NCBI GenBank assembly: GCA_025839675.1
Contig: CP104013.1
Coordinates: 3,060,001-3,092,000 of the forward strand
Length of the DNA: 32,000 nt
Source: Candidatus Lokiarchaeum ossiferum
GTDB taxonomy: Archaea > Asgardarchaeota > Lokiarchaeia > Sigyniarchaeales > Promethearchaeaceae
Direction: 5' to 3'
The notes under the pieces were generated by a model. It was not told the origin of the DNA. It did not search any database and worked only from the letters and a program-made list of their open reading frames with translations. Shown one piece after another: positions 7,584 to 32,000 of the stretch; within the stretch, counting starts at the first letter, position 1; each line of letters starts with the position of its first letter. A program made the position numbers and the translations under genes.

Positions 7584-7825
7584 TTTTTCTAACTCCAAAT
7601 AATTCTTCACTCTTTGAGGTAAGGAATCTAAAAAGTGAATCTTATGAGAATTAAGGTGATGATATATTAAAATCACTCAGAAGATAAGTTGGAAATTTTG
7701 TTGATTAATAATACATTATTCGTGATTTTTTGAAATAAGAATTTGCTTATTAATTTTGTCTACATTTAGAGTATTTTTCACAACTAAATTTGCGCATCTT
7801 TTCAAAAGGATAAAAAGGAAAAAAA

Positions 7826-9346
7826 ATGTTACAACTTATGGAAAAAGAACGTTCACGACCTCAATTTATCTGGACTATTTTGAAGGAAATCTATGCTCAT
7901 CCTGATAATTACAAAAAAAACCAAGGTAAAATTCATCAACGGATTAAAAAATGGTTGATAAAACGTTCTAATACCTACAATATTCCCCTCAAAATACAGG
8001 AAGATTCGATCGGGAATATTTTTGTAAGAAAACCTGCTCTTTCGGGGTGTGAAAACTACCCTCCCATTTTATTGCAAGCTCACTACGATATTTACGATAA
8101 AAAAGAAAGTTCCATTTATGATTTCCAGGGTTCATCGATTAGTTTCCAAGAAAAATGGATTGAAATGATAGGAACCCCCATTTTTGATGACTCAATTGTT
8201 GGTGTGGCCTTGATTCTTGCCGTGTTAATTAATAAAAATGAAATTTTTGAACATGGACCGATAGAAGCACTATTTACTGTAAAACGAGATGATAGATTTG
8301 TTGGAGCCCTTAATTTGGATGTAGATTATTTCAATATTCAAAGCAAATTCTTGTTAAATTTTGATTCAGTAGATTTAGGGGCAATAACAAATGGTACCGC
8401 GGGATGTGCAGAGTTTCTTTACTCCAAAAAAGCAACACCTATTGATCCAGGCGAGGGCAAGTATCTTACGTTTTACAAGCTTTCGATTTCTGGCTTGAAG
8501 GGAGGAGAATTAGGATCAGAAATACACTTCTTTCGTGCCAATGCAATTAAACTGATCGCCCGAGCACTTTCTTCTTTAAGTGAACACATGCAAATTAACT
8601 TAGCAGACTGGTCCGGAGGGGATCTCTATCGATTTATTCCCCGAAAATCTACGGTTATTTTTGCGGTTCATACTGATGAAGAATTCAAGGTGGAGCAAAT
8701 TTTAAAAGAAGAAAAGGGAACTATCATCAAAAAATATCGCACGTTCACCGAATATGGGTCCAATCTAGAACCTAATTTATGTATTCAGTGGGAAAAAACG
8801 AAAGCAAAACCCTATTTTTCGAAGAAGATCTCAGAATCAGCCATAGCTCTTGCAAATCTCATTCCGCATGGACTAAGTCGGTCATCTTCAGTTGAAAATG
8901 AATTTGGACGTATATCTAATAATTTTGCCAAGGTAGAGACGACCCGATCAGCAATACGTTTCCATTCAAAATCTCGCGGGGATAATGCGCCTGAATTTAA
9001 AGCTTTTAATAGAACTTTAATCCAATTGGGTGACCTTGGTGGTTGGAAAGTGAAAAATGATTATACTTTTCCAGTATGGGTGCCGCAAAAAGAGAAGGAA
9101 TTTCTGAATTTTGTGAAACATAAATATGAAGATATTCTCCAAAAACCGATTCGTATTGATAAATTGTATTGGGTATTAGAACCAGGAATAATTGCCAAAC
9201 AGATTCCGCAGATGCAAGCCCTCTCAATTGGACCAACCGAAATTGGAGTGTTTCCTGAAAATTATAAAGTCAGTGTCTATGATATTCAAATCCTCTTTCG
9301 TCTTCTACGGACAATTCTTAAGAATCTAAATCAAATCTCAATGTAA
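7826..9346 (+). CDS. PepD-like (aminoacyl-histidine dipeptidase, M20C) homolog, probably catalytically impaired
   Basis: 506 aa. Collinear with E. coli PepD as remembered: [28 protein letters not shown] vs [41 protein letters not shown] vs [21 protein letters not shown] vs SIGPTITG. Several active-site positions are substituted (see findings). Confidence 0.75.
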   Translation: [506 protein letters not shown]

Positions 9347-9367
9347 AATGAAGAGTTCTCCCAAGAT

Positions 9368-9868
9368 CTAAGGATCCAGATGAAGGGTTTCGTCATCGAG
9401 GCACAATTTTTTTTGATCTTCCTTAATCACATGGGATATCACGAGAGTTTCCAATTTTTCCACTAAATTGGATTTCATGATTTTCGAATAGACACGCTCC
9501 ATAAAAGATTTGTTATCTTGGGTTTTGACCAAGATCAGAAAGTTTTGAGCCCCTAAAATGAAATAAACCGCCCATACTTCTTCCATTCCAACTAAGAGGG
9601 ATTTCATCTTTTCAACCGAATCTTCGTGAAATTTTGCGGAAAGCAAAACAGCCGAAAGAAATTCATCTGAATGAGAAGTAAGATTCACATCAGCATGATA
9701 ACCTTGAATTATTTGTTCTTCTTCCAATCGTTTAATTCGGTAATGAATGGTGGAAAGGGATACATGTAATTTTTCAGCGAGTTTTCCATATGGAATCCGG
9801 CAGTCTCTTTGTAACTCATTTAGAATTTGTTTATCAATATTATCCAAAAAACTTCGACGATTTGACAT
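9368..9868 (-). CDS. Lrp/AsnC family transcriptional regulator
   Basis: 166 aa. N-terminal HTH (LDNIDKQILNELQRDCRIPYGKLAEKLHVSLSTIHYRIKRLEEEQIIQGY) followed by a RAM-type beta-alpha-beta-beta-alpha-beta domain. GGGAG SD-like motif upstream of the ATG. Confidence 0.9.
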   Translation of the reverse strand: MSNRRSFLDNIDKQILNELQRDCRIPYGKLAEKLHVSLSTIHYRIKRLEEEQIIQGYHADVNLTSHSDEFLSAVLLSAKFHEDSVEKMKSLLVGMEEVWAVYFILGAQNFLILVKTQDNKSFMERVYSKIMKSNLVEKLETLVISHVIKEDQKKLCLDDETLHLDP

Positions 9869-9876
9869 GCTACTCC

Positions 9877-9901
9877 CTTAATAACTAATATGGTTATTAA
9901 G
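9877..9901. promoter_or_regulatory. Perfect 9-bp inverted repeat (CTTAATAAC-n7-GTTATTAAG) just upstream of the lrp start
   Basis: Read directly: arms at 9877-9885 and 9893-9901, 9-33 nt upstream of the Lrp ATG (9868). It is a candidate autoregulatory operator; alternatively a hairpin after the acyl-CoA dehydrogenase gene. Confidence 0.35.
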
Positions 9902-9985
9902 TCAGAGTAACTCAAAAAATTTTTTGATTAGAGATAATATAAAAATAAAATTTGTAAAAAAGAGAATTCGAAAAACAAAACTAAT

Positions 9986-11239
9986 TTATAAAATTGACAT
10001 CATATCCTTTAAAGTGCGTGATACCAGGAAAAGTTGAATATTTCGGCTCCCTCCAATCACTTCTTGCACTTTACTTACCTCAAGTGCTTTATCCACCCGT
10101 AAATTATCGGTAAATGCAATTCCTCCGCAAATATGTTGGGTTTCATAAGCAATACGATGAGCAAGGTTTGAGGTTAAGAATTTTGTCCCGGAGCTGAACG
10201 CGGCATTATATTTGACGAATTTTTGATCTGGATATTTCAATAACTTTCGATATTCAATACCCGTTGTAAGTCCGAGAACTGTGGCAGACATCAATTCTGT
10301 GAATAGTTTTGTAATTGGAAAAGACACACCTTGATTATTAAATATGGGTTTTCCAAATTGTTGGCGATTATTGGTATAAATAAGCGAAGTAATAGCTGTA
10401 AGCCAACCTATTCCTAAACTAGAGCCAATAATAGTATCCCGTTCGGCAACTAAACCGGTGAATAAGTTTTTGTAACCTTGTCCTCGCCCACCAATAATGT
10501 TTTCTTTGGGCACTTTCACATTACTAAAAATTGTTTGACCAATTTCCACTCGAGGAACAGAATTGATTCCAAGTCGATGAGTTTCTAATCCTTTAAAATC
10601 CCTTTCTATTATGCCTTGATACATGGTTCCCCGAGGATTCGTTACATCGGATACCCCATAGGCAATAAAATAATCCGCTACAGGTCCATTGGTAGTATAT
10701 ACTTTCTCCCCATTAAACACCAAGTGATCATTATTATCTTGAACCGTAGTTTTCATGTTGACCGCATCGGATCCTTGAGTGCGTTCGGTAATACAAATAC
10801 AGCCGACTTTTCGACCAGAGATTGTTTCGGCAAGGATTTCTTGTGCTCGATCCGTACTGCCATGTTGAAAGATTGGATTGGTAAAAATTAACCCAGAGAC
10901 AACTCGAGCGAGATCTAATTCAGGATCCATGATTGTAGTGGCCATTGCGAGAAGCAATTCATAACGCATCCCATAATGTTCCATATCCCCAAATTTATTC
11001 AATCGTTGCATATAGTTCTTTTTACCCAATATTGGAAAAAGATCATAGACTTCTTTGGAATAATCCAGTTTGGGCTCTATTTCTTTCAACAAAAAATCTT
11101 CTAATTCATAGAGAAATGCCCGCTCTTCCTCCGTTATTAGAGGTGTTATAAAATTATTGAAAATCTTGTAAATATTTTTAGTAGAGAGTTTCTTCTTTAT
11201 CTCCCCATCCAATATATCAACGCCAGTCATGATGTCCAT
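9986..11239 (-). CDS. Acyl-CoA dehydrogenase (FAD)
   Basis: 417 aa. ITERTQGSDA (the ACAD LTEPxxGSD motif), GEKVYTTNG, and C-terminal GGIAF...IGGSRNIQ. GGAGAG SD 8 nt upstream of the ATG. The catalytic Glu appears to sit at the IVD/LCAD-type position (GLVAERD) rather than in the C-terminal YEGT motif. Confidence 0.9.
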   Translation of the reverse strand: MDIMTGVDILDGEIKKKLSTKNIYKIFNNFITPLITEEERAFLYELEDFLLKEIEPKLDYSKEVYDLFPILGKKNYMQRLNKFGDMEHYGMRYELLLAMATTIMDPELDLARVVSGLIFTNPIFQHGSTDRAQEILAETISGRKVGCICITERTQGSDAVNMKTTVQDNNDHLVFNGEKVYTTNGPVADYFIAYGVSDVTNPRGTMYQGIIERDFKGLETHRLGINSVPRVEIGQTIFSNVKVPKENIIGGRGQGYKNLFTGLVAERDTIIGSSLGIGWLTAITSLIYTNNRQQFGKPIFNNQGVSFPITKLFTELMSATVLGLTTGIEYRKLLKYPDQKFVKYNAAFSSGTKFLTSNLAHRIAYETQHICGGIAFTDNLRVDKALEVSKVQEVIGGSRNIQLFLVSRTLKDMMSIL

Positions 11240-11261
11240 TTAGGTTCTCTCCAAATGATCT

Positions 11262-12077
11262 TTAAAGACCATCCATCTTTCCCCCATTAATCGGAATAAT
11301 GGCTCCATTCATGAAATATCCTCCTTCACTGCAAAGAAAACATACAGGATCACTCACATAAGATGTTTTTCCAATTCCAAACGGAATTCTACCCTCATAA
11401 TAACTTCGGAATTTACCATCATCCTTCTTTAAGAGGTTTCCAATAATTGGAGTTTCAATCAAAGTTGGTTTTAGTGCATGGGTTCGAATATTATATCTCG
11501 CGAGTTCTTTTGCCATGGTAAGCGTCATCCCTATAACCCCTGCTTTGGAAGCAGAATATGCTAATTGCCCTGCATTTCCTTCAGCAGCTAAGGAAGCCAC
11601 GTGAATGACTACACGTGGTTTATTATCTAGAGTTGGAAGGTATTTTTCTCCTTTTTCTTTCGCCTTGGCACGGGAAAGATTCACCCATTTTGTAACCACT
11701 GCTTGAGAGCAAATCGCAGCCCCTTTCAAATTCACTTCCATGGTTAGATCCCATTTTGCTTCATCAAAACGACTGACTAGGAAATCACGTAAAATTCCAG
11801 CACAATTAACCAAAAAATCGATATCTCCTATTTTATTGAAAATTGCATCAACCGAGGCATCAACAAAGACTTTATCAGATACAGAACCGTGGAAGAATAA
11901 GATTTCTTTGTTAGTAATTGCTTTTAATTTTTCAACCGCTTCATTTCCCATTTCTTGGTTTAAATCAATAATGGCGACATTAGCACCATTTTCAGCCATA
12001 TCGGTGGCGATTTTCAGTCCTATTCCTGAGGCTCCACCAGTAATTAATATAGTTTTTCCTTCAAAATTCCATTTCAT
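11262..12077 (-). CDS. Short-chain dehydrogenase/reductase, HSD10 / 3-hydroxyacyl-CoA dehydrogenase type II-like
   Basis: TGGASGIGL cofactor motif, NCAG, catalytic YSASKAG. AAEGNAGQLAYSASKAGVIGMT resembles the remembered HSD17B10 block [23 protein letters not shown]. The track start at 12110 is TTG; the ATG at 12077 has an AGGT-type SD upstream. Confidence 0.85.
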   Translation of the reverse strand: MKWNFEGKTILITGGASGIGLKIATDMAENGANVAIIDLNQEMGNEAVEKLKAITNKEILFFHGSVSDKVFVDASVDAIFNKIGDIDFLVNCAGILRDFLVSRFDEAKWDLTMEVNLKGAAICSQAVVTKWVNLSRAKAKEKGEKYLPTLDNKPRVVIHVASLAAEGNAGQLAYSASKAGVIGMTLTMAKELARYNIRTHALKPTLIETPIIGNLLKKDDGKFRSYYEGRIPFGIGKTSYVSDPVCFLCSEGGYFMNGAIIPINGGKMDGL

Positions 12078-12297
12078 CGAATTTACCTTACCTGTCAAGG
12101 ATTTAATCAAAAATTTCTTTTGTGGTAGCTATGCGAAAGGTATCGCACCACTTTTTTTCATTTTTGATAAAAAGTACTTATAATTTAGCGATTTTTGATT
12201 AAAAAGTTTCATTTCTTTTGGAAATTATTAAAATTATTAAGCGATTTTTGGATTATATCACTATTTTCTTAAATACGTACTCTGCATATTTTCTAGT

Positions 12298-13944
12298 TTA
12301 TATCATCGATGTTTGTTTCTTTTGACCATAGGGATTAATATCACCCATGGGAACAAAAATTTTTGAATCAGTCGGCAAAATCACCGTTTTTTCGACATTT
12401 TGAAAAGATTTAACTTGTTGTAATCGCAGATATTCTTCTGTTGTAGAACTTTCAAGTAATAAGAGAGTATTTTTCAAATGTAGTTCCTCTCCTTGATTAA
12501 CTATAGATTCTCGCATTTGAATGGATTCCATTTCCCCTCGTGTTCGCTCTATTGAGGCTTCAGCTTCAATTTTAGCATTTCCGATCTCTTTAAATTTAAA
12601 ATTTGCCAGTTCCTTCTCATATAATGCTTGTTTTGTATCTTCTATTTCGATTCGTCCTTCCACCAATTGCCGTTCCGCTTCTAATTGAGCAGTTTGTTGA
12701 ATTTTATTCACATATACATCCATATTGGATTTAATGGCGGCATTGAGTTGATTCGCAATTTCAGCATCTTGAGGTAGGATTTTCTTAATATCAAGCCCGA
12801 AGATCTCGAAATAATTTTCATCAAAACGAAAATAGGTAAGATCATGCTTGAAAAGAACAGGTTCGATTAATTCAGCAGCTTTAGAATGAAATTCTTCAAA
12901 ATTGTGTTGGGCAGCTTCTTGTCGGATGATGCTAGCCATGGTTTCGGTCGCATATCCGATAAAATCTTCCACCGCAAAAATTTTTTTCAAGTTTTTGGGA
13001 TCTATATTGAACCGGGTTTTATATCTAAGATGAATCAATAACTCCGCATTATCTTTGGTTCTCACACATAGCTGATCAGAAACGAACATTGGACCCAAAA
13101 AAATCTTCCATTTAGTCAAGATATTTGGCATCTTGGGGGTTTTACCACTAATAATCAATGTTTTAAGCCGATCAAAGGGTTCTAACAAGAGCATTTTTGG
13201 TCCTATTTCTACTCGTTGTGTTTCACCAGAATTGATCATGGCAATTTCTTCCGTTTCTAATTTCAAAGGTATAGCCCGGGATGCATCAATTTGAACTCCA
13301 AGGATCTTTAAGGCTCTTTGTTCCGCGATTGAATAGTGCTTATAATAGAGTTCTTCAAAGGGAGTCAACATCAGAGTTTGAGGTCCCTTCTCTAAACGAA
13401 CTTGCCCTGTATTAAAATTCTTTATATATAGGCCATCTTGTGCACCTAAACTAATTGCCTCTATTTCCTTCTCAATTTTGGTGTATATATGCGGATAATA
13501 TATCATGGGTCCTTTTCTCATCCAGATATCCCCCGCTTTGTGCATTATTTCATCTTCCCGATAATCTTGTATACATCTGATAATAAGTCCTCTATCATGG
13601 GCCAGAACATAATTATTGTAAATTTTTCCGTCTTCCAGTATTTCTCCAGGATATAATGAAAATATACATGGCCCTTGCCGAATCTCGCGCACACCATGTT
13701 TAATAATTCGCTTCTTTGAGTCATGAGGATTGATTATAGTAGCATATTGCCCTTCTTTTATTATTATTTTTTCTCGAATAGTTCCATATAGTTTTTTCCA
13801 CCACAGATATTTTATTCTTCGGTACGGTCCTTCAATAAGGTTGACTTGACCGGTAAATTTGTTGATAACATGGCAATATTCCAATTCTGTGAGAATTAAT
13901 GTCGATATTTTGTGCGTTTTTGCTGGGGAGGAAAGTTTTTTCAT
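12298..13944 (-). CDS. Major vault protein (MVP)-like protein: MVP beta-repeats + shoulder (SPFH-like) domain + cap-helix-like coiled coil
   Basis: 548 aa from the ATG at 13944 (the track start at 13953 is GTG). Multiple collinear blocks match human MVP as remembered (details in findings). The C-terminal ~100 aa are E/A/Q/K-rich and helical. Confidence 0.7.
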   Translation of the reverse strand: MKKLSSPAKTHKISTLILTELEYCHVINKFTGQVNLIEGPYRRIKYLWWKKLYGTIREKIIIKEGQYATIINPHDSKKRIIKHGVREIRQGPCIFSLYPGEILEDGKIYNNYVLAHDRGLIIRCIQDYREDEIMHKAGDIWMRKGPMIYYPHIYTKIEKEIEAISLGAQDGLYIKNFNTGQVRLEKGPQTLMLTPFEELYYKHYSIAEQRALKILGVQIDASRAIPLKLETEEIAMINSGETQRVEIGPKMLLLEPFDRLKTLIISGKTPKMPNILTKWKIFLGPMFVSDQLCVRTKDNAELLIHLRYKTRFNIDPKNLKKIFAVEDFIGYATETMASIIRQEAAQHNFEEFHSKAAELIEPVLFKHDLTYFRFDENYFEIFGLDIKKILPQDAEIANQLNAAIKSNMDVYVNKIQQTAQLEAERQLVEGRIEIEDTKQALYEKELANFKFKEIGNAKIEAEASIERTRGEMESIQMRESIVNQGEELHLKNTLLLLESSTTEEYLRLQQVKSFQNVEKTVILPTDSKIFVPMGDINPYGQKKQTSMI

Positions 13945-13985
13945 TGTACACACTTAAAAATAACTCAAGTATTTAATTTACCAAT

Positions 13986-14004
13986 GTCACATAAATAATG
14001 TGAC
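13986..14004. promoter_or_regulatory. Inverted repeat GTCACAT-n5-ATGTGAC in the divergent intergenic region
   Basis: Read directly. It is a G/C-containing palindrome in the otherwise AT-rich 125-bp spacer (13945-14069) between the MVP-like gene and the putative regulator. Confidence 0.25.
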
Positions 14005-14069
14005 TATTGTGAATAATGAAAACTTTTTTTTCAAAGTAAAAATTGCATTTAGTATAGAGAATTAAGACA

Positions 14070-14801
14070 ATGATATATCAAGAACGAGTCCATGTTATTC
14101 CTGTTGGTGATGATGATGTTGATAGAATCGTAATTCCTGCCATTCAAGGGAAGGCTGATAAGGTGTACTTGGTCACTATGGACGATAAAGATTTGTTCCA
14201 AACTATCGTTCAAGAAGCGGAATCTCGTCTCAGAGATTTAAGGATTGAGGTAATCGTCAAACGTTGCAATTTGGAAAGCTTTAGTGATTTTATTTTAGAA
14301 ATTGCCCGCATCATTAAGTCTGAGATAGACAAGAAAAACATACTAAACTATAGTATATCTACCGGAGGGAATCTTGCCGCAGCTGCTGGAATGTTAGCTT
14401 GTCTTCTATTTCAAATTCGGCCGTATTTTATTAAAAAAGATTTTTCTATTGGGAAAATATCTAAAGAGCAGTTGAATATTCCATTATACCATATGGATGT
14501 GCCTGGAAAACCCCTTATATTATTTCTAAATGATATGAAAACTGAAATGGATAACCATGGTACCACCTCAATTTCCAAGAAGGATTGCTTGGAGCTCATG
14601 AAAAGACGTCACCCAGATGAAATTTTCTCATCTACTTCTGGTGAATATAATAAACTCAAGTTCCGCTATTTGGACAAACTTCTTGGTAATCATTTCATTG
14701 ATATTGAAAGTAAAGTTCGCGGAAGAATCTCAATTACCTCTGAAGGACTGTTTGCTTGGGATTTCTTCACTATTTATTACAACGTTTCATCAAGAAATTA
14801 G
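14070..14801 (+). CDS. Putative regulator: N-terminal Rossmann-like CARF/Csa3-like (HFX_2341/DUF6293-like) domain + C-terminal winged-HTH-like region
   Basis: 243 aa. The N-terminus RVHVIPVGDDDVDRIVIPAI...KVYLV...STGGNLAAAAGMLA fits the pattern of archaeal Csa3-N-like domains as I remember them. The C-terminus (KKDCLELMK...YNKLKFRYLDKLLGNHFIDIESKVRGRISITSEGL) looks like a wHTH. Pattern-level call only. Confidence 0.4.
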   Translation: MIYQERVHVIPVGDDDVDRIVIPAIQGKADKVYLVTMDDKDLFQTIVQEAESRLRDLRIEVIVKRCNLESFSDFILEIARIIKSEIDKKNILNYSISTGGNLAAAAGMLACLLFQIRPYFIKKDFSIGKISKEQLNIPLYHMDVPGKPLILFLNDMKTEMDNHGTTSISKKDCLELMKRRHPDEIFSSTSGEYNKLKFRYLDKLLGNHFIDIESKVRGRISITSEGLFAWDFFTIYYNVSSRN

Positions 14802-14975
14802 GATCCCCATCATCTATTCAATGGAGCTGAAATTCAAAAAAAAAGATGTTTTTCCAAATAAGACTGTCTGAATTACGAATTTCTTTTAACAATCTTAAAT
14901 TAATAGCATGTTCTTCGACCTATTTACAAAGATTATATTTGGAGGGAGTGGTTTAACACAATTGGAGATATTTTT

Positions 14976-15413
14976 ATGAAATCAATAATCCGAATGCGAA
15001 TGTCCATGCATGATGCCCATTATGGTGGGAATTTAGTTGATGGCGCGAAAATGCTTAATCTTTTTGGTGATGTTGCCACAGAGTTGCTAATTCGAAATGA
15101 TGGTGATGAAGGTCTTTTCCGAGCTTATGACAATGTTGAGTTCTTAGCCCCCGTTTATGCAGGCGATTACATTGAAGCCACGGGTGAAATTATTGGAATC
15201 GGCAATAGTTCCCGGAAGATGCAGTTCGAAGCTCGCAAAGTAATTATTCCTCGACCGGATTTAAATGATAGTGCTTGTGATGTGCTCACAGAACCTATTG
15301 TTGTTTGTCGTGCCAGTGGAACTTGTGTTGTACCGAAAAACAAGCAGCGAAATTTGATTCCAATATCCCAATCTACAGTACCAACTTCCCCTAGTGGTTT
15401 AGCATTTAAATAG
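14976..15413 (+). CDS. kal: 3-aminobutyryl-CoA ammonia-lyase (hotdog fold)
   Basis: 145 aa. [67 protein letters not shown] matches my memory of Kal proteins from lysine-fermenting bacteria. GGAG SD 8 nt upstream. The last 15 nt overlap the convergent giant ORF. Confidence 0.8.
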
Positions 15414-18400
15414 CTTCGATACTCGATGATGGAGGGTTTCTTCATTCAATTGTTTTTTTTCTTGTAATTCACCACAAATCTTCTTAAAATCTAACCAAAT
15501 AACTGTAGTTAGTTTGCTCCTAATTTTTGGATATAAATTCTCAATCACCTCATACATACATATTTGTTCCGCCATGGAATAAGTCTGGTATCTTTTTTTT
15601 GGTAGAAATAGAGGTATTTCTAGATAATCTTGATTATTTTTCGCTAGAAAGAATGGTTGTTTTCGAGAAATATTTAGAAGTTTACTAATGTCCTTTTCAT
15701 AATAAATATCATATGGGATAATGGGAGTGATATAAAAGTCGAGATGATAAGATTCTAAGATTGAATAGAGTTTATCATATAAAATTTGTACATTTTCACG
15801 CAAATGCAAAAAAATAACCAATTTTTGAGCGTCATTCTGGGAATTTTTAGTATAAAGTATTTGTCCAGTGGGTAGTTGTTCTACCAAGGCTCGAATTTCT
15901 TTTTCTCTTGTTTGAGAATCCTCAATGATTAGGCACATAGTGAATGGATAGCCGATTATTTGCCAGAATTCCCATTTAAAAAACCGAGGTTGATACAAGA
16001 TATTATTGTTGAAAAGGAGTTGAACTTCAGTTTCAGAAAGATCTTGATTAGTTTGATATTTTTTGAGCATCGCTTTGAGATCCTCAGATAAAGTGTGAAA
16101 ACTATAGTCATAGTGAATCTCATGTGGATTGACAAAAAACTCAGCATCTTTTTTCTTCACTTTTTTTAATAGTAAATAATTCTGATACCGCCAATCCAGA
16201 GGATAGAGAGCATGTTCATTAAAAAAACGTCTTTCTTCAGTTAATTCATGAGAGTGTAAGCTAATTTGAAATTTTAATTTAATATTTTTAATCAATCGTT
16301 GAAAATTTGAGTTTTGATCATAATATATTTGTTCTGGAAGGTAATATTCTAAAATTAAAAACCCATTCTCATTCCCACCAAAATAATAGCAATTTTCAAG
16401 ACCAAGCATTAATAAACCCTTCAGTAATTCATCTTTCTGAAAAATAAGTGGATTGATTCCTCTATTAGGTGGTTTGATGAAGATAAATATTCTCTTCATT
16501 TTTGAGATTGGTGGATAAATTTTAAGATCTGAAAAGTAATATTGTGTAATCTCATTTAGATCATTTGAAAATTTTCCAACAATGGAGGAGTATATGTTAT
16601 TATTTAAAACACAGCGATTTAGGAATATTTTTTTAAAAATCGATTGGATCTTTGTACGATTTAAACCTAAGGTCTTGGAAAAACTATTCAATTGATTAAA
16701 ATAGTTTAAATTTTTGAATAAATAATTATAGTTAAATTTACTTTTAATAGAGCACTTTTGATTAAAATTTGTATTCAAATGCAGATTTTTGCTTGGTATT
16801 ATTCGAGTGACTCGTTTTTTTGCTTCGTTAATTAAAAAATCAAGATTAAAACTTTCTAAATTCCATTCTTGTTTATTGTAATTAAAAAAGGTAATCATGG
16901 AAGGATCGAATGCTTTTGAGAAGTTTCTGTAAAGAATTGACAAAGAATCAATGTTTTCTAACAAAAGTAACTTAGATATGATTAAAAAGGAAGATATGTT
17001 TGCAAATATACCTTTATGATGCATTATTTTTCTATATGGTAGAACTTGTTGAAATTTTATTGACACAAATAGGAGAAATACCTCATCGATCCAATCCAAT
17101 TTATATTTGCTTAAAATAAAAAATTTTATCACCTCCTTGTGTGAATTAAAAAATGAATTAATGGCCATTATCTTCGAATTTCTTAATAAATCATTGTATA
17201 TTAGAGAGATAAACTTGTTTTCAATGATTTGGAAAGAATGATTTTTGACTTGAGAAAAATTTCTTTTAATATCAGCTAAAGTTGGGAATAAGTCAATCTC
17301 TAAATCTAATTTTTCAATTGATTCTGTACTCGTAAATCCGAAAAATTCTATCAATTTGAGAAGCTTAATTTCATTCTTATTTTCATAGCTTTGATTTTTA
17401 TAATATTTGAAAATTTCATTCAATGAGGAAAACCGTTGAAAAACCTTATCTTGATTAAGATGGATGAAAGTTTTTTTCAATTGACTAAAATTTGGATAAT
17501 TTTTAATTAAAACAGGAAACTCACTCGTTTTAATGGTTAGTTTGATGAATTTCAAAAATTCTCTCATTGTTTTAAATTCTTGAAGTTTTGAAAGGAGCAT
17601 ACGTGAATTGAAGAATAGAAATAAATCTAAAGAATCAATTTCGATCTTGTCGGATAATTTACTGCCATTTGCATAAAAAAGTTCTGAATTATGTGAAATT
17701 TTCTGGTTAAATGAATTTTTTCTTTTTTCATTGATTTTGGAAAAATATTTTTTAGAATTAAAGGGAAAGATCGAAAGAATGTTTGTTTCACTTGAAATTT
17801 TTGAATTATAATTAATATTATAGTTCGCTTTTTTAATTTCTAATAAGTTATAACTAATTATGTATCCACTTTCCTTTAATGAATTAAGAAATTTCGCTAA
17901 AAAATTAAGAGAATTTCGAGGAAGGATGGAATAAAGGAATAAATCATATCCTTCCTTCCTAATAATATTAACGTATGGTATTTTATGGATAATTTTTTTT
18001 ATAAATTTATTCTGATCGATTCCATTAGCAAGAATTATGTTGACGTAGTAAATACCAAGATTGAGATTATTATATTGATTAACAACAAAATAATTTAAAA
18101 TCATACTTCCAGTGTAAATTTCAGAATTGGAGCCTTTCCTATTTAGAAGAAGATCCCTATTCGATTTATGGAGATTTTTCTTAATAAAGCCTAAATTGAT
18201 ATTTTTTCCGATATAATTTCCATAGGTATAAAATAACCCTTGAATAAAATCATGGGTACTGATATTCTCTGATAAAAATGGAATAAAAGTCTTAAAAACA
18301 ATTTCTAGAGATATATTTTGAAGAAAATTCTCGATAAATGAGAGATAAACCATCGAATTATTTATGATCCCTGAAAAATGATCCAAAATCTCTTGATAAA

Positions 18401-18719
18401 TTGGCTTTAATTCAAATAATTCATTGTTTTTAAAATGGAGAAGAAATATAAAAGAAATGATATTTCTGTTGTCTAAATATCTTTCATCCATGAAACTGAT
18501 AATAGAAGCAAATTCTACCAATTGAATATAATTGTCCTTGTAATTCGAATGAAGATGGATAGATTCACTCAATAATAACCCAAAGTTTTTTTGAAAATTA
18601 GAAATTTCATTAGGATCACTATGAAATAAAATATTTTTAAAAATGAAATTAGGAATTCTTTCGAATAGAAGCTCATATTTTGAGATATATTGAAGATATT
18701 TTTCGTATAAAATTCCCAT
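15399..18719 (-). CDS. Large (1106 aa) uncharacterized N/I/K/F/L-rich protein; possible array of degenerate wHTH + RAM-like modules
   Basis: A 3.3-kb frame free of stop codons in DNA that is visibly about three-quarters A+T, where TAA/TAG/TGA should be frequent, argues strongly for real coding. ATG at 18719. No Walker, nuclease or other catalytic motif recognised. Confidence 0.6.
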
Positions 18720-18877
18720 TGACTGTTAATTACTGATTCATCTGGAAAGAAAAATCTTTCTATGAAAAATATATGATTTTAAAAATATTGACTTAATTAA
18801 TTAATGAGAAAAATGTATGAAAAAACCCTTATTACGATTAATTTTTTGCAGTTTTCCATTCGTGAGGTGAATGATAA

Positions 18878-18913
18878 ATGAATGTTCCAAACGATGTACA
18901 ACTCCCACAATAA
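18878..18913 (+). CDS. Candidate micro-ORF A, 11 aa (MNVPNDVQLPQ)
   Basis: GAGGTGA at 18864-18870, 7 nt upstream of the ATG. A paralogous copy lies at 19259. Differences between the copies are enriched for synonymous changes. Confidence 0.25.
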   Translation: MNVPNDVQLPQ

Positions 18914-18918
18914 AAAAA

Positions 18919-18984
18919 ATGTCCTTTAAAAACCAATTAGATCAAAAAATCTAAGAATGTCCTTTAAAAACCAAGTAGATCAAA
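18919..18984 (+). repeat. Two tandem direct repeats ATGTCCTTTAAAAACCAA(T/G)TAGATCAAA, period 38 bp
   Basis: Read directly: copies start at 18919 and 18957 and differ at one position over 28 nt. Confidence 0.85.
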
Positions 18985-19048
18985 TCTACTTTTTTTAAAG
19001 TTCATTTGGTTAAACTTGTTGAATAATGAAGGGGTATTGAAATCAATT

Positions 19049-19108
19049 TTAATATACGTATTCATATTTATAGAGATTTTGAAGATATTTTTCGTATAAA
19101 ATTCACGT
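19049..19108 (-). pseudogene. Decayed 5' fragment paralogous to the giant ORF N-terminus
   Basis: Minus strand reads ACG TGA ATT TTA TAC GAA AAA TAT CTT CAA AAT CTC TAT AAA TAT GAA ... TAA. The real gene reads ATG GGA ATT TTA TAC GAA AAA TAT CTT CAA TAT ATC TCA AAA TAT GAG. The start codon is lost (ATG>ACG), codon 2 is a stop (GGA>TGA), and 8 codons are identical. Confidence 0.55.
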
Positions 19109-19258
19109 TGACTGTTAATTACTGAATCGTTAAATTAAAAAAGTGTTTCGAAATATTTTGAGTTTATATACTCAAATCTAAAAAATATCTGAGAAAAATG
19201 CATAATCCTAATTGTCCGGAAAATAATCCTGTTTTCTAACTTTGAGGTGACATGTTAA

Positions 19259-19291
19259 ATGAAAATACCGAATGATGTATTTACTCCTTAA
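19259..19291 (+). CDS. Candidate micro-ORF B, 10 aa (MKIPNDVFTP)
   Basis: GAGGTGA at 19244-19250, 8 nt upstream of the ATG. Paralog of micro-ORF A. Confidence 0.25.
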   Translation: MKIPNDVFTP

Positions 19292-19583
19292 AAAATTAAC
19301 TAATTGATTTCCCATGCAATTTTGATGGAATAGATTTGATTAAATTGCTTGAAACTCAAATAGAATGAATTCTTTTCTTTTCAATATATCTTTATTTCAA
19401 ATTCAATATTCATTTATCGTCTTAAAATCAATTTTTTTCAATTATATGAAATGAATCATTTCTGTTCCCCCTTTTTTTTTACTAAATTACCTATCTTTTC
19501 TCTTTAGCTAAAAATTAGATCACATTTTTAATCGAATACAATATAAACAAAATTATTGCATTTTTACTCATGAGGTGATACCA

Positions 19584-20828
19584 ATGGTAGAAAAATTAAA
19601 ACTTGAAAAATCCGAACAATATTACAAAGAAGCTCTTGAAGTAATTCCAGGTGCCATTTTGGGAATACGTAGACCCTATAATTTTGTTGTAGGTGAATAT
19701 CCTATCTTTTTTGAAAGCGCTGATGGTGGAAAAGTGAAAGATGTTGATGGAAATGAATATATCGATATGCTTTGTGCATATGGACCTATTATCATAGGGC
19801 ATAAGGAAAAAGAGATTGATGATGCAGTTATTGCTCAGATACAGAATAAAGGATTCTGTTTCTCCCTTACCCAAGAAATCCAAAATAAACTGGCAAAAAA
19901 ACTTACCGAATTGATCCCATCATGTGAAAAAAGTGTGTTTGTGAAAACAGGATCAGACGCAACCACAACGGCAGTTAGAGTCGCACGAGGATATACAGAT
20001 CGAACAAAAATTTTGCGCTGTGGCTATCATGGATGGCATGATTGGTGTGTAGAAGTAAAGGGTGGAGTTCTCCCAAAGACTTATGAGGATGTAATCGAAT
20101 TTGAATATAACAATTTAGAGCAGGTAAAAGAATTATTTGAAAAGTATGGACCTGAAATAGCTGGAGTTATCATTACTCCAGTAGGACACCCTCTTGCACA
20201 TGAAGTAGAGATGCCAAAACAGGGATTTTTGGAAGGTATTCGAGAGATTACAGAAAAAAATGGAACTGTACTCATTTTTGATGAGATTCGGAGCGGATTT
20301 CGAGTGAATTTGGGCGGAGCCCAAAAAGAATTTGGAGTTACACCCGATATGTCCGTCTTTGGGAAAGCGATTGCCAATGGCTATCCTATTGGTGTGGTGG
20401 TAGGTAAAAGCGAATTTATGGATGTATTAGCAGACAAAGTGTTTTTAAGTTCCACATTCTTCCCAAACAGTTTGGCTCAAGTCGCTGCGCTGAAAACCAT
20501 TGAAATTATGGAACGAGATAAGATTTTGGATGTGATCAGAGAAAAAGGGACAAAATTCGGAGCTATGATTGAAAAAATCATCAAAGAAAGCGGAATTGCG
20601 TGTACTTTTTCCGGTGCTCCTTGGATGCCCTTTATCACCTTTGATCATGATCCTAACAAGTTATATAAGAAATTGCGGAATGAATTCTATACCCGTTTAA
20701 TCCGTCGAGGTGTTTTCCTCCAACCATATCATCATGGTTACATTGCTTACCGTCATTCCGAGGAGGATTTAGAATATGTGGCAAAAGTTATCAAAGAATC
20801 TCTAGAAGAATTAAAACAATTTCTATAA
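19584..20828 (+). CDS. Class III (HemL/GSA-aminomutase-like) PLP aminotransferase; candidate 3-aminobutyryl-CoA aminotransferase (Kat)
   Basis: 414 aa from the ATG at 19584 (GAGGTGA 5 nt upstream; the track start at 19575 is GTG). Motifs: GNEYIDM...GP.I.GH, TGSDATTTAVRVARGYT, LIFDEIRSGFRV, and FGKAIANGYPIG with the PLP lysine. The canonical HemL N-terminal GGVNSPVRAF is replaced by GAILGIRRPYNF. Confidence 0.85.
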   Translation: MVEKLKLEKSEQYYKEALEVIPGAILGIRRPYNFVVGEYPIFFESADGGKVKDVDGNEYIDMLCAYGPIIIGHKEKEIDDAVIAQIQNKGFCFSLTQEIQNKLAKKLTELIPSCEKSVFVKTGSDATTTAVRVARGYTDRTKILRCGYHGWHDWCVEVKGGVLPKTYEDVIEFEYNNLEQVKELFEKYGPEIAGVIITPVGHPLAHEVEMPKQGFLEGIREITEKNGTVLIFDEIRSGFRVNLGGAQKEFGVTPDMSVFGKAIANGYPIGVVVGKSEFMDVLADKVFLSSTFFPNSLAQVAALKTIEIMERDKILDVIREKGTKFGAMIEKIIKESGIACTFSGAPWMPFITFDHDPNKLYKKLRNEFYTRLIRRGVFLQPYHHGYIAYRHSEEDLEYVAKVIKESLEELKQFL

Positions 20829-20846
20829 TTTGTGTTGAGTTTCCAG

Positions 20847-20864
20847 TTTTTTACAATTTTTTTT
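20847..20864 (+). terminator. T6 + T8 tracts after the aminotransferase stop
   Basis: T-runs at 20847-20852 and 20857-20864, 19-36 nt after the stop codon (20826-20828). Confidence 0.35.
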
Positions 20865-20939
20865 AATAACAAAAACCAGTTCAAATCCTTTTCTAAGAAA
20901 GAAATATGTGTTTAATAAAAAGTCCATATTAGTAATCAT

Positions 20940-21761
20940 ATGGAAAAATTGATCATAACCGCAGCGATAAGCGGTGCAGAAGTGATGAAGGAACATAACC
21001 CAGCGGTTCCATACACAATTGAAGAAATTGGAAGAGAAGCAGAATCAGCCTATAAAGCGGGAGCAAGTATCATTCATTTACATGTGCGAAATGATGATGG
21101 AACTCCTACCCAAGATAAAGCACGATTTCAAGCTTGTATGGAGGAAATTCGAAAACGTTGCTCAGATGTTATAATCCAACCTTCGACCGGTGGGGCAGTA
21201 GGAATGACCGATGATGAACGTTTACAACCGACAGAGTTATCTCCAGAAATGGCCACCCTCGATTGTGGAACCTGTAATTTTGGAGGGGATGATATTTTTG
21301 TCAATTCAGAAAACACCATTAAAAATTTCGCCATAAAGATAAAAGAACGCGGAATCAAACCCGAATGCGAATGTTTTGAAAAGGGACATATTGACATGGC
21401 CATTAAAATGCACAAGAAAGGATTGATTGATGCCCCAATGCACTTTAATATGGTGTTAGGAGTTTCAGGAGCAATGAGTGCCACCCCTCGAGATTTGACG
21501 TTTATGGTAGATAGTATTCCTTTGGGCTCAACCTTCACTGTATGCGCGATGGGGCGATATCAAATGCAAATGGCCGCAATTTCAATAGTACTCGGCGGAC
21601 ATGTTCGAGTGGGTTTTGAGGACAATGTCTATATTTCTCGAGGAGTGCTCGCCAAATCAAATGGAGAATTGGTGGAAAAAGCAGTTAGAATTGCAAAAGA
21701 GTTAGGGCGAGAAATTGCAACTCCTGCCGAAACTCGAAAAATACTGGGATTAGTAAAGTAA
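20940..21761 (+). CDS. kce: 3-keto-5-aminohexanoate cleavage enzyme (BKACE/DUF849 family)
   Basis: 273 aa. N-terminus KLIITAAISGAE. HLH with His46/His48, plus GFED (Glu in VRVGFEDN), matches the Zn ligands I recall for Kce. TIM-barrel BKACE pattern throughout. Confidence 0.9.
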   Translation: MEKLIITAAISGAEVMKEHNPAVPYTIEEIGREAESAYKAGASIIHLHVRNDDGTPTQDKARFQACMEEIRKRCSDVIIQPSTGGAVGMTDDERLQPTELSPEMATLDCGTCNFGGDDIFVNSENTIKNFAIKIKERGIKPECECFEKGHIDMAIKMHKKGLIDAPMHFNMVLGVSGAMSATPRDLTFMVDSIPLGSTFTVCAMGRYQMQMAAISIVLGGHVRVGFEDNVYISRGVLAKSNGELVEKAVRIAKELGREIATPAETRKILGLVK

Positions 21762-21767
21762 AAAAAA

Positions 21768-23417
21768 TTATAAGATTTCAATTTTTTGGCGATTTTTTGA
21801 TGAATAAGACTTTTTCTTCTTATTCCCATTTCGATTCTTACGTCTTTTGGATTTAGCTAAATTAGTTGAACCACTCCGTTTTGGGGCTTCACTCACTTTT
21901 AAGGTAGAAGCTCGTTTAGGAGAAGAACTTCGTTTAGGAGCAACACTTACTTTTGGAGCATTTGAATTACTTGGAGGCGCCATTCCTTTTGGAGCATCAT
22001 TCTTTTTGTAAGCATCAGAGCGTTTCGACCCATTATTTCGTTTTGGAGCTTCGCTTCGCTTAGGATTACCACTTCGTTGTGAAAAACTCTTTCTCTTTGG
22101 GAAATTAGAAGGAGAGGATTTATTACGTCTCTGTTTAGACCCATTTCGGTTTTTGCGGCGATCAGATTTTGCTTTGTTGGGGGATTTTTTCGTATCAGGA
22201 GTGGTAAACCATTCTGGGACTTCAGGTTTTTCAATTTTAGGAAGCACTACTTTATTAGTTGGATCATCAACCGAACGACGTTCTATATCATACTTCAATA
22301 ATTTTTCAATTTTGAACATTAACTCCCGTTGATTCATGGCAACAATAGACACGGCTTTTCCATTGTCAACATTTTTCTCAATACCTGCAGTTCGGGCAGT
22401 TCTTCCAATTCGATGAACATAATCTTCTGGATCGCGAGGTAAATCATAGTTGAACACATGAGATACTTTTGGAAAATCCAAACCTCGGGCAAGGACATTA
22501 GTAGCAACTAAACAATTTAATTTATGTTCCCGGAATTTAGCGACTGTTTCTTCACGCTTTGCCTGTGTTAAATCACCGTGAATAAAACCCGCTTTAAGAT
22601 TAAAGTTAAGACCAAGCTCCGCATTCAATCTACGGCAAAGTTCTTGGGTTTTACGTTTAGTTTTAGTAAAGATTATGGAAAACTCAGGAAGTTCATTATT
22701 TAAGATTTTCACAAAATTCCAGAACTTATTTTTATCAACGTAATAAGCATATTGATCACAATTTTCGACAGTTAAGGAATCTTTACTCACATCAATTTCA
22801 TGAACAGTATCATTTTTCGTAAATTTATAAATCAATTTTTTAATTTCTTCCAACAATGTGGCCGAAAATAGGAATAATCGAGGTGAGACATTACGCATGG
22901 CATCCAACAATAGAAAGCGGATATCCGGGAAGAATCCCATATCAAGCATTCGATCTGCTTCATCCAACGCAACGAAGTTAACACATTTAAAATTCACTTC
23001 TCCTTGGCGGACTAAATCAATTAACCGTCCAGGAGTGGCAACTAATACTTGGCCCCCATTTTTAATTTGCTCGATTTGGAGACGAATCGAAGCTCCGCCA
23101 TACACTTCTACGATTTTGACTTTTTTATACGTGGTGATGGAACGGAACACTGAGGCATTTTGTTTGCATAATTCCCGAGTAGGAACTAAGATGACTGCTT
23201 GGATATGACGATTTTTCAAATCAATTTTTTCAATGATGGGGATCGCAAAGGCTAAAGTTTTCCCAGATCCTGTTTTTGCTTGACCTATAACATGGGATTT
23301 TCGTATAGAAAGCCCGTGGGGAATGCTTTTTTCTTGGATTTCGGTTGGAGAAGCAATGTGATTGTCTTCTAGCGCCCGAATAATTTTTGGACTAATGTCC
23401 ATTTCTTTAAATAACAT
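21768..23417 (-). CDS. DEAD-box ATP-dependent RNA helicase with a ~155-aa basic repeat-rich C-terminal tail
   Basis: Q-motif region (PTEIQ), motif I AKTGSGKT, PTRELC, DEAD (LDEADRMLD), SAT, ARGLD, HRIGRTAR. The tail is rich in K/R/S/N/P with APKR-type repeats. Confidence 0.92.
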   Translation of the reverse strand: MLFKEMDISPKIIRALEDNHIASPTEIQEKSIPHGLSIRKSHVIGQAKTGSGKTLAFAIPIIEKIDLKNRHIQAVILVPTRELCKQNASVFRSITTYKKVKIVEVYGGASIRLQIEQIKNGGQVLVATPGRLIDLVRQGEVNFKCVNFVALDEADRMLDMGFFPDIRFLLLDAMRNVSPRLFLFSATLLEEIKKLIYKFTKNDTVHEIDVSKDSLTVENCDQYAYYVDKNKFWNFVKILNNELPEFSIIFTKTKRKTQELCRRLNAELGLNFNLKAGFIHGDLTQAKREETVAKFREHKLNCLVATNVLARGLDFPKVSHVFNYDLPRDPEDYVHRIGRTARTAGIEKNVDNGKAVSIVAMNQRELMFKIEKLLKYDIERRSVDDPTNKVVLPKIEKPEVPEWFTTPDTKKSPNKAKSDRRKNRNGSKQRRNKSSPSNFPKRKSFSQRSGNPKRSEAPKRNNGSKRSDAYKKNDAPKGMAPPSNSNAPKVSVAPKRSSSPKRASTLKVSEAPKRSGSTNLAKSKRRKNRNGNKKKKSYSSKNRQKIEIL

Positions 23418-31496: not shown

Positions 31497-32000
31497 TTAA
31501 TCCCACGGATTGAATTTTTCTCGACTTTTCATGTTAAATTTTTTCTGAATATCATTAATCAATTGATTTTTGCAGTAATCATCAATGAACTGTTCAATCA
31601 ATTCTTGTTCTGAGAAATCATAGCTTTCTGCAAGATTTGAGTTTTGAGAAAAAATGTAGTTAATTATTGAAAAAGCTGTATTTGGAATATTAGAGACAGA
31701 ATGCATCCTAAAATTAGGATTCGAATTTGTTTTTAAAATTAAATTGTTCAAATGGTTTGAAAAATGAGATAAATTAGGATATTGAGCAATTTTCATTGAT
31801 TTCATGTATTCAGGATTTTCAACAATGTTCTCATCGAGAAATAAAAGGAATGATTCTGATATCTCATCTATCAAAGCATGAGAGAATGAAGGAGGTAAAC
31901 CAGTTGTTATGACTAAAACATCAACTTCTTGCTCAAATTGCTCAAAATAAGAACTTTCAAAGTCAAATAGATATTTTCCAAGTTTGATTGATCTTAGTTT
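31497..32000 (-). CDS. Hypothetical protein, 5'-truncated by the window edge
   Basis: The track starts this ORF at a TTG (31874). The same frame stays open for all 42 codons up to position 32000 (KLRSIKLGKYLFDFESSYFEQFEQEVDVLVITTGLPPSFSHA...), so the gene probably starts outside the window. No family recognised. Confidence 0.45.
   Translation of the reverse strand, partial: KLRSIKLGKYLFDFESSYFEQFEQEVDVLVITTGLPPSFSHALIDEISESFLLFLDENIVENPEYMKSMKIAQYPNLSHFSNHLNNLILKTNSNPNFRMHSVSNIPNTAFSIINYIFSQNSNLAESYDFSEQELIEQFIDDYCKNQLINDIQKKFNMKSREKFNPWD

Follow-up and report, generated by a model that had tools for sequence, protein, structure and literature searches.

Regulators of the Lrp/AsnC family combine an N-terminal winged helix-turn-helix (wHTH) with a C-terminal RAM domain, corresponding to the profile models HTH_24 and AsnC_trans_reg, in a chain of ~150 aa that oligomerises, and Lrp-type regulators are often encoded divergently from amino-acid metabolism operons. 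Two Lrp-like units are fused covalently in tandem in the siroheme decarboxylase NirDL (AhbA-AhbB; structures 4ch7 and 4czc), a 309-aa protein that provides a precedent both for the joining of such units in one chain and for loss of the regulator role. The gene considered here is a 1106-aa open reading frame (ORF) on the minus strand, at 15399-18719, of a 32,000-nt stretch of the Candidatus Lokiarchaeum ossiferum B35 genome (GenBank assembly GCA_025839675.1, contig CP104013.1, positions 3,060,001 to 3,092,000 of the forward strand). This whole stretch is referred to below as the window, and positions are given in its coordinates. The ORF lies among lysine-fermentation genes, between kal on one side and a kat-like aminotransferase gene and kce on the other.

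The preferred reading, which is given a probability of roughly 0.55, is that the ORF is a genuine native gene for a four-unit, Lrp-like, non-catalytic binding scaffold and occupies a turnover-prone slot between kal and kat. The single chain would carry four tandem units, each a degenerate HTH-like helical region followed by a ferredoxin-like beta-alpha-beta-beta-alpha-beta domain, amounting to the wHTH-plus-RAM plan repeated four times and comparable to the two-unit fusion NirDL. Such a protein would serve as a non-enzymatic scaffold, the intramolecular counterpart of an Lrp-type oligomer, with its four units binding nucleic acid and/or a small ligand through RAM-like interfaces. The slot that would accommodate this turnover does not exist in MK-D1, and the AT-richness of the gene would represent the mutational baseline of the genome, visible through a weakly constrained amino-acid sequence, and not a foreign mark.

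The gene, its protein family and the predicted fold

The ORF runs for 1106 codons without interruption; the remaining five frames of the same interval contain 71-132 stops each, and the chance of a stop-free run of this length, given the base composition, is p ~1e-42. The product is identical (100%) to NEF87_002599, a hypothetical protein of strain B35. This is a genuine protein-coding gene of Ca. Lokiarchaeum ossiferum: an alignment of homologous proteins covers it over its full length, and structure prediction becomes confident only when that alignment is supplied. The ATG at 18719 is backed by conservation of residues 4-30 across the family (conserved positions include L4, Y8, F19, I30, F70, S75, and F76), which favors the 1106-aa start over that of the RefSeq/PGAP version, a protein of 1057 aa in both strain B35 and strain B36 that begins 49 codons downstream of the GenBank start (omitting 18573-18719). 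The original prediction, made from the DNA alone, had described an AT-rich antisense ORF lying between kal (+) and kat-kce (+) and overlapping the 3′ end of kal by 15 nt; position, strands, and the extent of the overlap are all exact.

The same prediction had called the gene an ORFan, a description that is contradicted by homologs outside the species. Word-indexed searches, with the single protein or with an 18-sequence profile, returned the query alone, low-complexity AT-rich words having flooded the candidate list and blinded the search to homologs, so that exhaustive HMMER searching was needed. At E ≤ 1e-3 the latter detected the query and 30 further cluster representatives (11 of the 31 at E ≤ 1e-30), and these 30, which share 18-36% alignment identity with the query, include full-length proteins from Promethearchaeum syntrophicum and from Promethearchaeota metagenome-assembled genomes. 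Several members are full-length (957-1125 aa). All named sources are Lokiarchaeum, P. syntrophicum, or ‘Promethearchaeota archaeon’ and, as judged from the representatives that carry a source name, the family is Lokiarchaeia-restricted, undescribed, and fast-diverging, with several paralogs per genome. In strain B36 another member is encoded at a locus unrelated to this one, the two copies found in MK-D1 share 91% identity, and one assembly contains members of both subfamilies B and D. These are two of the three subfamilies (B, C, and D) distinguished by the identity matrix, with 45-65% identity within each; the window protein falls outside all three, at 22-36% identity to their members.

Comparison of the ORF by sequence with Pfam, NCBIfam, PADLOC, PHROG, and the Protein Data Bank (PDB) gave no match, and neither did Pfam comparison of 18 family members at E ≤ 0.1 or of seven C-terminal regions at E ≤ 10. 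Metagenome scans with the ORF and with an HFX_2341-like neighbor found nothing, and no relatives of the ORF were detected in IMG/VR, GenBank phages, or plasmids. Identity reaches 75% or more in 53 alignment columns, almost all of which are occupied by hydrophobic or aromatic residues, Gly, or Pro; polar residues at these columns are confined to S75, S322, S495, E791, S804, E825, S1018, and E1051; no conserved catalytic constellation of His, Arg, Asp, or Cys is seen across the family. The ORF protein contains no transmembrane segment or signal-like N-terminus. Together with the conservation pattern, this argues that the protein is soluble and non-catalytic and has a binding or scaffolding role. 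The isoelectric point is 9.2-9.6 in the full-length members examined.

AlphaFold2 (AF2) run on the single sequence gave a useless model (predicted local distance difference test, pLDDT, 34.9), whereas with the 33-sequence family alignment pLDDT rose to 81.2 and the predicted template modeling (TM) score (pTM) was 0.78. The latter model comprises four beta-alpha-beta-beta-alpha-beta units (aa 221-305, 530-601, 741-833, and 926-999) with helices ahead of each, and is also helical over aa 1-192, 363-528, and 1010-1104. A RAM-like fold is thus present, at the level of prediction, in four copies. When the model was compared with the PDB using Foldseek, the only meaningful match was NirDL, with its tandem Lrp/AsnC fold: 4ch7 was matched with prob 1.00 and E 4e-3 over 338 columns, with a TM score of 0.43 normalized to the target, and 4czc with prob 0.99. 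Matches to AcrB/RND structures in the PDB, with TM 0.08 and prob ≤ 0.35, were dismissed as spurious, and a Foldseek search of the BFVD viral structures returned nothing. Three segments of the protein had been proposed to have the Lrp/AsnC architecture, and at the fold level each coincides with a predicted unit (aa 221-305, 741-833, and 926-999), to which the model adds a fourth.

The likeness is not matched by significant sequence similarity, and the proposed architecture is therefore upheld in one respect only: the ORF protein looks, in its predicted fold, like four Lrp units. No significant sequence match places the ORF family among the Lrp/AsnC (FFRP) proteins, whereas the genuine AsnC-family gene in the window does match the HTH_AsnC-type/HTH_24 and AsnC_trans_reg models. 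A stretch at aa 489-513 aligns in register with Lrp HTH helix 3 in hhalign, although weakly and without significance (E 0.12). Self-comparison of the family profile gave one off-diagonal signal, in register, between module 1 (aa 223-257) and module 4 (aa 925-959); its E-value was 0.26 there and 0.0016-0.008 when the two modules were compared pairwise in isolation. The check for internal repeats suggested earlier, run as an hhalign profile comparison, yielded a weak module 1/module 4 hint and no significant repeat.

Base composition and the slot between kal and the aminotransferase

Composition was judged with the 32-kb window as reference. The GC of the ORF is 0.262, compared with 0.317-0.420 in 23 of the 24 other window ORFs of at least 100 aa; the 600-nt GC profile descends to 0.24-0.25 across ~16400-19400 and the lowest 60-nt line in the ORF, at 16681, has a GC of 0.10, in agreement with the ~10% noted from the sequence at the outset. 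GC at third codon positions (GC3) is, however, 0.245, inside the range of the neighbors (0.215-0.329), and the intergenic DNA of the rest of the window has a GC of 0.256, which places the ORF at the genome's own mutational baseline. The deficit sits in codon positions 1 and 2 (GC1 0.327 and GC2 0.215, vs. about 0.43-0.55 and 0.25-0.42 in neighboring genes), that is, in amino-acid composition: F, Y, M, I, N, and K (FYMINK) make up 47% of residues as opposed to 28-36% in 23 of the 24 other window ORFs, and G, A, R, and P (GARP) 10%. The gene is accordingly a compositional outlier in total GC, as had been claimed, but not in the sense of foreign origin, and the atypical synonymous-site or non-coding composition of a horizontally acquired island was not found. 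The syntenic homolog in a sister species (contig L083) has the same signature, with a GC of 0.269 and GC3 of 0.257. A caution for genome scans follows, in that a weakly constrained gene of low total GC in an AT-rich genome imitates a foreign island; in such genomes the question of native vs. foreign is settled by GC3 and intergenic GC. A 125-aa ORF at 31497-31874 (-) has a composition like that of the 1106-aa ORF (GC 0.267, GC1 0.317, GC2 0.222, GC3 0.262, FYMINK 46%) and is not a member of the family by comparison with the family hidden Markov model (HMM).

Strains B35 and B36 share an average nucleotide identity of 97.2% and differ chiefly in defense and mobilome genes (bioRxiv 10.64898/2026.02.13.705702). 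Window positions 5399-28737 are 99.63% identical to B36, whose ortholog of the ORF product is identical at 1105 of 1106 residues, the sole change being K661N. The two ORFs differ at four nucleotides (one non-synonymous and three synonymous), or 1.2 per kb, with mostly 0-2.4 differences per kb in flanking genes; one non-synonymous change in four is mildly below neutral expectation (estimated p about 0.05, on tiny numbers). The DEAD-box helicase gene at 21768-23417 (-) accounts for 56 of the 87 differing columns in the 23-kb B35-B36 alignment (34 per kb vs. ~1.5 elsewhere). Most of these differences, 18 gap columns included, cluster in 21874-22300, the C-terminal part, making the tail of this protein hypervariable.

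In the sister species, L083 is collinear with the window at ~86% nucleotide identity and its flanking proteins are 87-98% identical, but blastn collinearity is confined to 7805-15412, ending at the kal stop, and 19515-21752, where it is regained some 60 nt ahead of the aminotransferase gene. The slot in between measures 4.1 kb in the window and 5.9 kb in L083, where it holds a family member on the opposite strand with 28% alignment identity (29% in phmmer/tblastn matches) as well as a degenerate C-terminal fragment of a further family copy, a pseudogene. No non-coding similarity was found between the two slots, sensitive blastn detecting only an inverted gene-to-gene match at 56%. Grouping of the two syntenic genes as sisters received a neighbor-joining bootstrap below 20%. 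Near the left border a mosaic tract at ~14100-15150 (L083 ~7870-8920), which spans the HFX_2341-like gene, the spacer, and the first third of kal, is 95-99% identical at the nucleotide level, compared with about 85% elsewhere, and has a 4-fold-site identity of 0.96 vs. 0.42-0.70 around it; this tract, which abuts the slot, indicates recent recombination between the two lineages at that very place. A second indel hotspot in the cluster lies between kce and the DEAD-box helicase gene (window 21752-21760), where L083 has an extra 2.75 kb (17301-20055), absent from the window, that encodes three proteins of 294, 235, and 191 aa with no Pfam match.

In MK-D1, kal directly abuts kce (75% identical to that of the window), with neither an aminotransferase nor a family member between them; a 363-aa ORF lies directly upstream of kal (L079, 8579-9670, +) in a stretch of 22-28% GC, likewise AT-rich and lineage-specific, and is unrelated to the family HMM. 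A close relative (L090, GCA_029935835.1, 497-3888) carries a subfamily-B member at a different site, beside an ortholog of the HMG-CoA synthase gene; this member is split into ORFs of 673 and 421 aa, as a result of a frameshift, pseudogenization, or misassembly. Nine family loci have no neighboring genes in common.

The slot is thus variable between species and stable within the species. That the syntenic genes are not sisters, and that identities within subfamilies are much higher, favors non-orthologous replacement or relocation. On the other hand, 4-fold-site identity in several flanking genes is 0.42-0.57 between the window and L083, so close to saturation that the same picture could arise from a weakly constrained ortholog and a single inversion. 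For this reason the lack of nucleotide similarity within the slot was rejected as proof of replacement, since it is expected under replacement and in-situ divergence alike. The earlier suggestion of an insertion or a fast-evolving, lineage-specific gene is borne out in its second part, with MK-D1 kal and kce contiguous; a recent foreign insertion is contradicted by the native composition and by the kal-kat junction itself, at which B36 has the same gene and the slot of L083 is also occupied.

Weighing the explanations

Acquisition of foreign DNA from an AT-richer donor, splitting a kal-kat-kce operon in the recent past, was suggested by the total GC of 0.26 (vs. about 0.36-0.42 in neighboring genes), by the antisense position and the contiguity of kal and kce in MK-D1, and by the flanking lysine genes, which themselves look horizontally acquired. 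It is largely refuted: host GC3 and intergenic GC equal the GC of the gene, every named homolog is Lokiarchaeial, B35 and B36 share the gene at flank-like divergence, the sister-species slot is filled too, and the C-terminal tail of Kal is older than the split of the two species. An alternative considered possible, though unlikely, is that the gene belongs to a mobile or selfish element, as its cargo or its agent, or is of defense-island type, relocating within genomes and being traded among lineages, and that the slot would be an integration or recombination hotspot. The divergent, oppositely oriented members between well-conserved flanks, the pseudogene fragment, the low sister bootstrap set against within-subfamily identities, the relocated and split relative of the L083 gene beside HMG-CoA synthase, the near-identical pair of copies in MK-D1, the tract of high identity abutting the slot, and the predominance of defense and mobilome genes among the published B35/B36 differences are all in keeping with it. 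Against this, the nine family loci share neither an integrase or transposase nor any other partner gene, the slot borders have no terminal inverted or direct repeats and there is no tRNA at the slot, searches of PADLOC, PHROG, and the viral and plasmid collections revealed no match, and Pfam identified no recombinase; conserved catalytic residues of the kind that a recombinase or nuclease should have are lacking in the family, B35 and B36 both stably carry the gene, and in-situ orthology with a single inversion would look the same.

The remaining alternatives concern what the protein does. A local, amino-acid-responsive Lrp-type regulator of the lysine genes, sensing pathway intermediates through its RAM-like domains, is improbable. 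The predicted Lrp/AsnC-like modules, the divergent placement across 855 bp from aminotransferase-kce that is typical of Lrp-type regulators, and the presence of a family member in the corresponding sister-species slot would suit such a role, but most members occur in unrelated contexts without lysine genes, orientation relative to kat-kce is not conserved, kal-kce of MK-D1 has no adjoining family gene, the cluster already contains a canonical AsnC-family regulator (9368-9868), and the syntenic proteins are 28% identical where their presumed target genes are 90-97%. A repurposed Lrp-fold enzyme akin to the NirDL/AhbAB siroheme decarboxylase is very improbable, even though NirDL itself is the best structural match, as the family has only a few conserved Ser/Glu columns in place of a constellation of His, Arg, Asp, or Cys, Pfam/NCBIfam revealed no genes of the haem, d1, or Ahb pathways nearby, and divergence between paralogs is extreme. 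A more far-reaching proposal, speculative and distinctly doubtful, is that the protein would be a single-chain ‘tetra-Lrp’, a hypervariable sensor or DNA-organizer unique to Lokiarchaeia, whose alleles of <30% identity would be exchanged through recombination at fixed slots, kal-kat among them, in the manner of defense or self-recognition loci.

Several results weigh against the reading of the ORF as a native, Lrp-like binding scaffold. AsnC and HTH profiles of Pfam/NCBIfam match no family member even at E ≤ 10, and hhalign of the four modules with their preceding helices against an Lrp/AsnC profile that is itself shallow (11 sequences, effective number of sequences 2.6, collected using the genuine AsnC gene of the window) gave probabilities of 0.1-0.6%. 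Helices lie ahead of every module, but the putative wHTH parts are read from helix patterns only, and internal repeats were not significant by profile self-comparison. The NirDL match is marginal, with an rmsd (root mean square deviation) of 14 Å in addition to the E-value and target TM score given above, and NirDL is an example of this fold serving as an enzyme and not in DNA binding. High isoelectric point is weak evidence for nucleic-acid binding, being common in AT-rich proteomes, and no evidence of expression was found in the literature or its supplements.

Asgard archaea hold thousands of unannotated lineage-specific genes, and one large family of this kind now has a confidently predicted architecture together with a defined evolutionary behavior, namely the presence of multiple paralogs in a genome, fast divergence, and turnover at a slot. 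The analysis of the ORF leaves the interpretation of the lysine-fermentation pathway as it was.

Surrounding features and comparison with known systems

Coordinates of the gene, of the regions of its product, and of the flanking features are collected in Table 1.

Table 1. Features of NEF87_002599 and of the slot in which it lies (window coordinates; E, strand; H, helix).
Feature	Position	Strand	Basis and details
1106-aa gene NEF87_002599	15399..18719	-	ORF, family homologs, B36 ortholog
N-terminal, mostly helical region, aa 1-192	18144..18719	-	AF2 secondary structure; conserved from residue 4
Module 1, aa 212-305, short strand and helix, then unit	17805..18086	-	AF2, pLDDT 80-91; E221-230, H236-242, E250-256, E259-267, H268-284, E287-305
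Helical region with HTH-like stretch, aa 363-528	17136..17633	-	AF2 helices 363-526
Module 2, aa 530-601	16917..17132	-	AF2; missed by the original prediction; E530-537, H542-547, E550-558, E565-574, H575-586, E592-595
HTH-like helical region ahead of module 3, aa 664-739	16503..16730	-	AF2 helices 664-685, 688-700, 707-717, 721-725
Module 3, aa 741-833	16221..16499	-	AF2; best conserved family motifs: P757, G768-L-F, G781-G782, L-x-L-E791-Y792, S804, E825
HTH-like helices ahead of module 4, aa 856-921	15957..16154	-	AF2 H879-889, H896-904, H916-921; conserved W916, F918
Module 4, aa 926-999	15723..15944	-	AF2, pLDDT 85-95; conserved QLP-x-G-x-I (P950, G952, I954); E926-933, H935-946, E951-959, E965-973, H977-990, E994-999
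C-terminal helical region, aa 1010-1104	15408..15692	-	AF2; conserved S1018, P1036, E1051
Convergent overlap with kal	15399..15413		Last four ORF codons and stop are antisense of the last kal codons
Variable slot, kal stop to about 40-50 nt upstream of the aminotransferase start	15414..19532		blastn collinearity, boundary alignments
~389-bp tandem duplication, 18673-19061 and 19062-19450	18673..19450		Repeat search (88 nt at 81%); 78% mean column identity
kal (3-aminobutyryl-CoA ammonia lyase), left slot flank	14976..15413	+	NF052388 equivalog, 201 bits vs. cutoff 160
HemL-like class III aminotransferase (kat-like) and kce, right slot flank, divergent from the ORF	19575..21761	+	Pfam, NCBIfam

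Upstream of the ORF, the 855-bp intergenic region (18720-19574) that separates it from the divergent aminotransferase gene contains the tandem duplication, which takes in the first 47 nt of the ORF and its upstream sequence. A relic of the start, frameshifted, is retained in copy B, and B36 has the duplication as well. Each copy contains a mini-ORF (18878-18913 and 19259-19291, both +) preceded by TGAGGTGA, the same Shine-Dalgarno-like motif as is found ahead of the aminotransferase start. The mini-ORF products are MNVPNDVQLPQ and MKIPNDVFTP, encoded in one of the better preserved segments of the duplication. Two 32-nt direct repeats of 94% identity (AAAAATGTCCTTTAAAAACCAATTAGATCAAA), at 18915-18946 and 18953-18984 and with a spacing of 38 nt, also lie upstream of the ORF; their 18-nt core motif was detected only in the window (B35) and the B36 ortholog locus among 92 loci. 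Scans of the slot for Rfam families, tRNAs, and promoters or terminators gave no family, no tRNA, and no meaningful signal.

Among the flanking genes, the aminotransferase (19575-20828, +) is likely to start at the ATG at 19584, the B36 annotation being 414 aa, and kce (20940-21761, +) corresponds to NF052387. The Kat protein of lysine-fermentation clusters was originally described as just such a class III, HemL-like enzyme (PMC3149608), which makes the label ‘kat’ plausible for this gene. Kal has a tail of 19 aa beyond the ~126 aa that are alignable to other Kal proteins, and the last four codons and stop of the ORF are antisense of it. The C-terminal extension noticed in the original prediction is thus real, but its suggested derivation from the present junction is not sustained: Kal of L083 has the same tail, of the same length and with the same end (...SGLAFK), beside a different and oppositely oriented insert, so that the tail predates the junction. 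The overlapping kal codons likewise belong to the conserved flank, as homology with L083 reaches the kal stop. A genome scan with Kal returned mostly Clostridia, and also the MK-D1 locus. Among the matches listed (loci L001-L080), the identity of Lokiarchaeum Kal is 79-90% to the Kal proteins of many Clostridia, Fusibacter, and Acidaminobacter genomes and 81% to that of MK-D1, which suggests either inter-domain transfer or extreme conservation of lysine-fermentation genes. Farther to the left, a 551-aa ORF (12298-13953, -) has the repeat and shoulder domains of the Major Vault Protein (Vault, Vault_2, Vault_3, and MVP_shoulder in Pfam), so that an Asgard archaeon encodes a vault-like protein of eukaryote type; it is 90% conserved in the sister species.

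In its organization the kal-kat slot resembles the variable slots, or ‘replacement islands’, known from defense islands and surface-antigen loci, with sharp borders at conserved genes, alleles that share <30% identity and are flipped in orientation, the fragment of a pseudogene, and an adjoining mosaic tract of high identity. It differs from them in that the ORF family has no recognizable defense, mobility, or surface function, and the comparison covers two species and one strain, for which a fast-diverging in-situ ortholog and an inversion could produce the same pattern. NirDL/AhbA-AhbB, the best PDB fold match, differs in size (two units in 309 aa compared with four in 1106 aa, at about 10% identity); the ORF has no haem-pathway context and its family no conserved catalytic residues, and neither the active site nor the haem-related neighbors of a siroheme decarboxylase (NirDLGH/AhbAB) were found in the Pfam/NCBIfam survey of the neighborhood or in the conservation pattern. 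The likeness to Lrp/AsnC regulators lies in the four predicted blocks of helices followed by a unit, in local sequence patterns that recall HTH helix 3, the wing, and RAM beta-1, and in a basic protein encoded within an amino-acid catabolic cluster. The ORF protein is distinguished from such regulators by its degenerate HTH regions and lack of detectable sequence homology, by its long extra helical regions, by DNA or ligand binding that is putative, and by the arrangement of four units in one chain in place of oligomerization. If this four-unit, Lrp-like plan is true, it would be an unusual covalent version of a normally oligomeric regulator and would extend the precedent of NirDL from two units to four.

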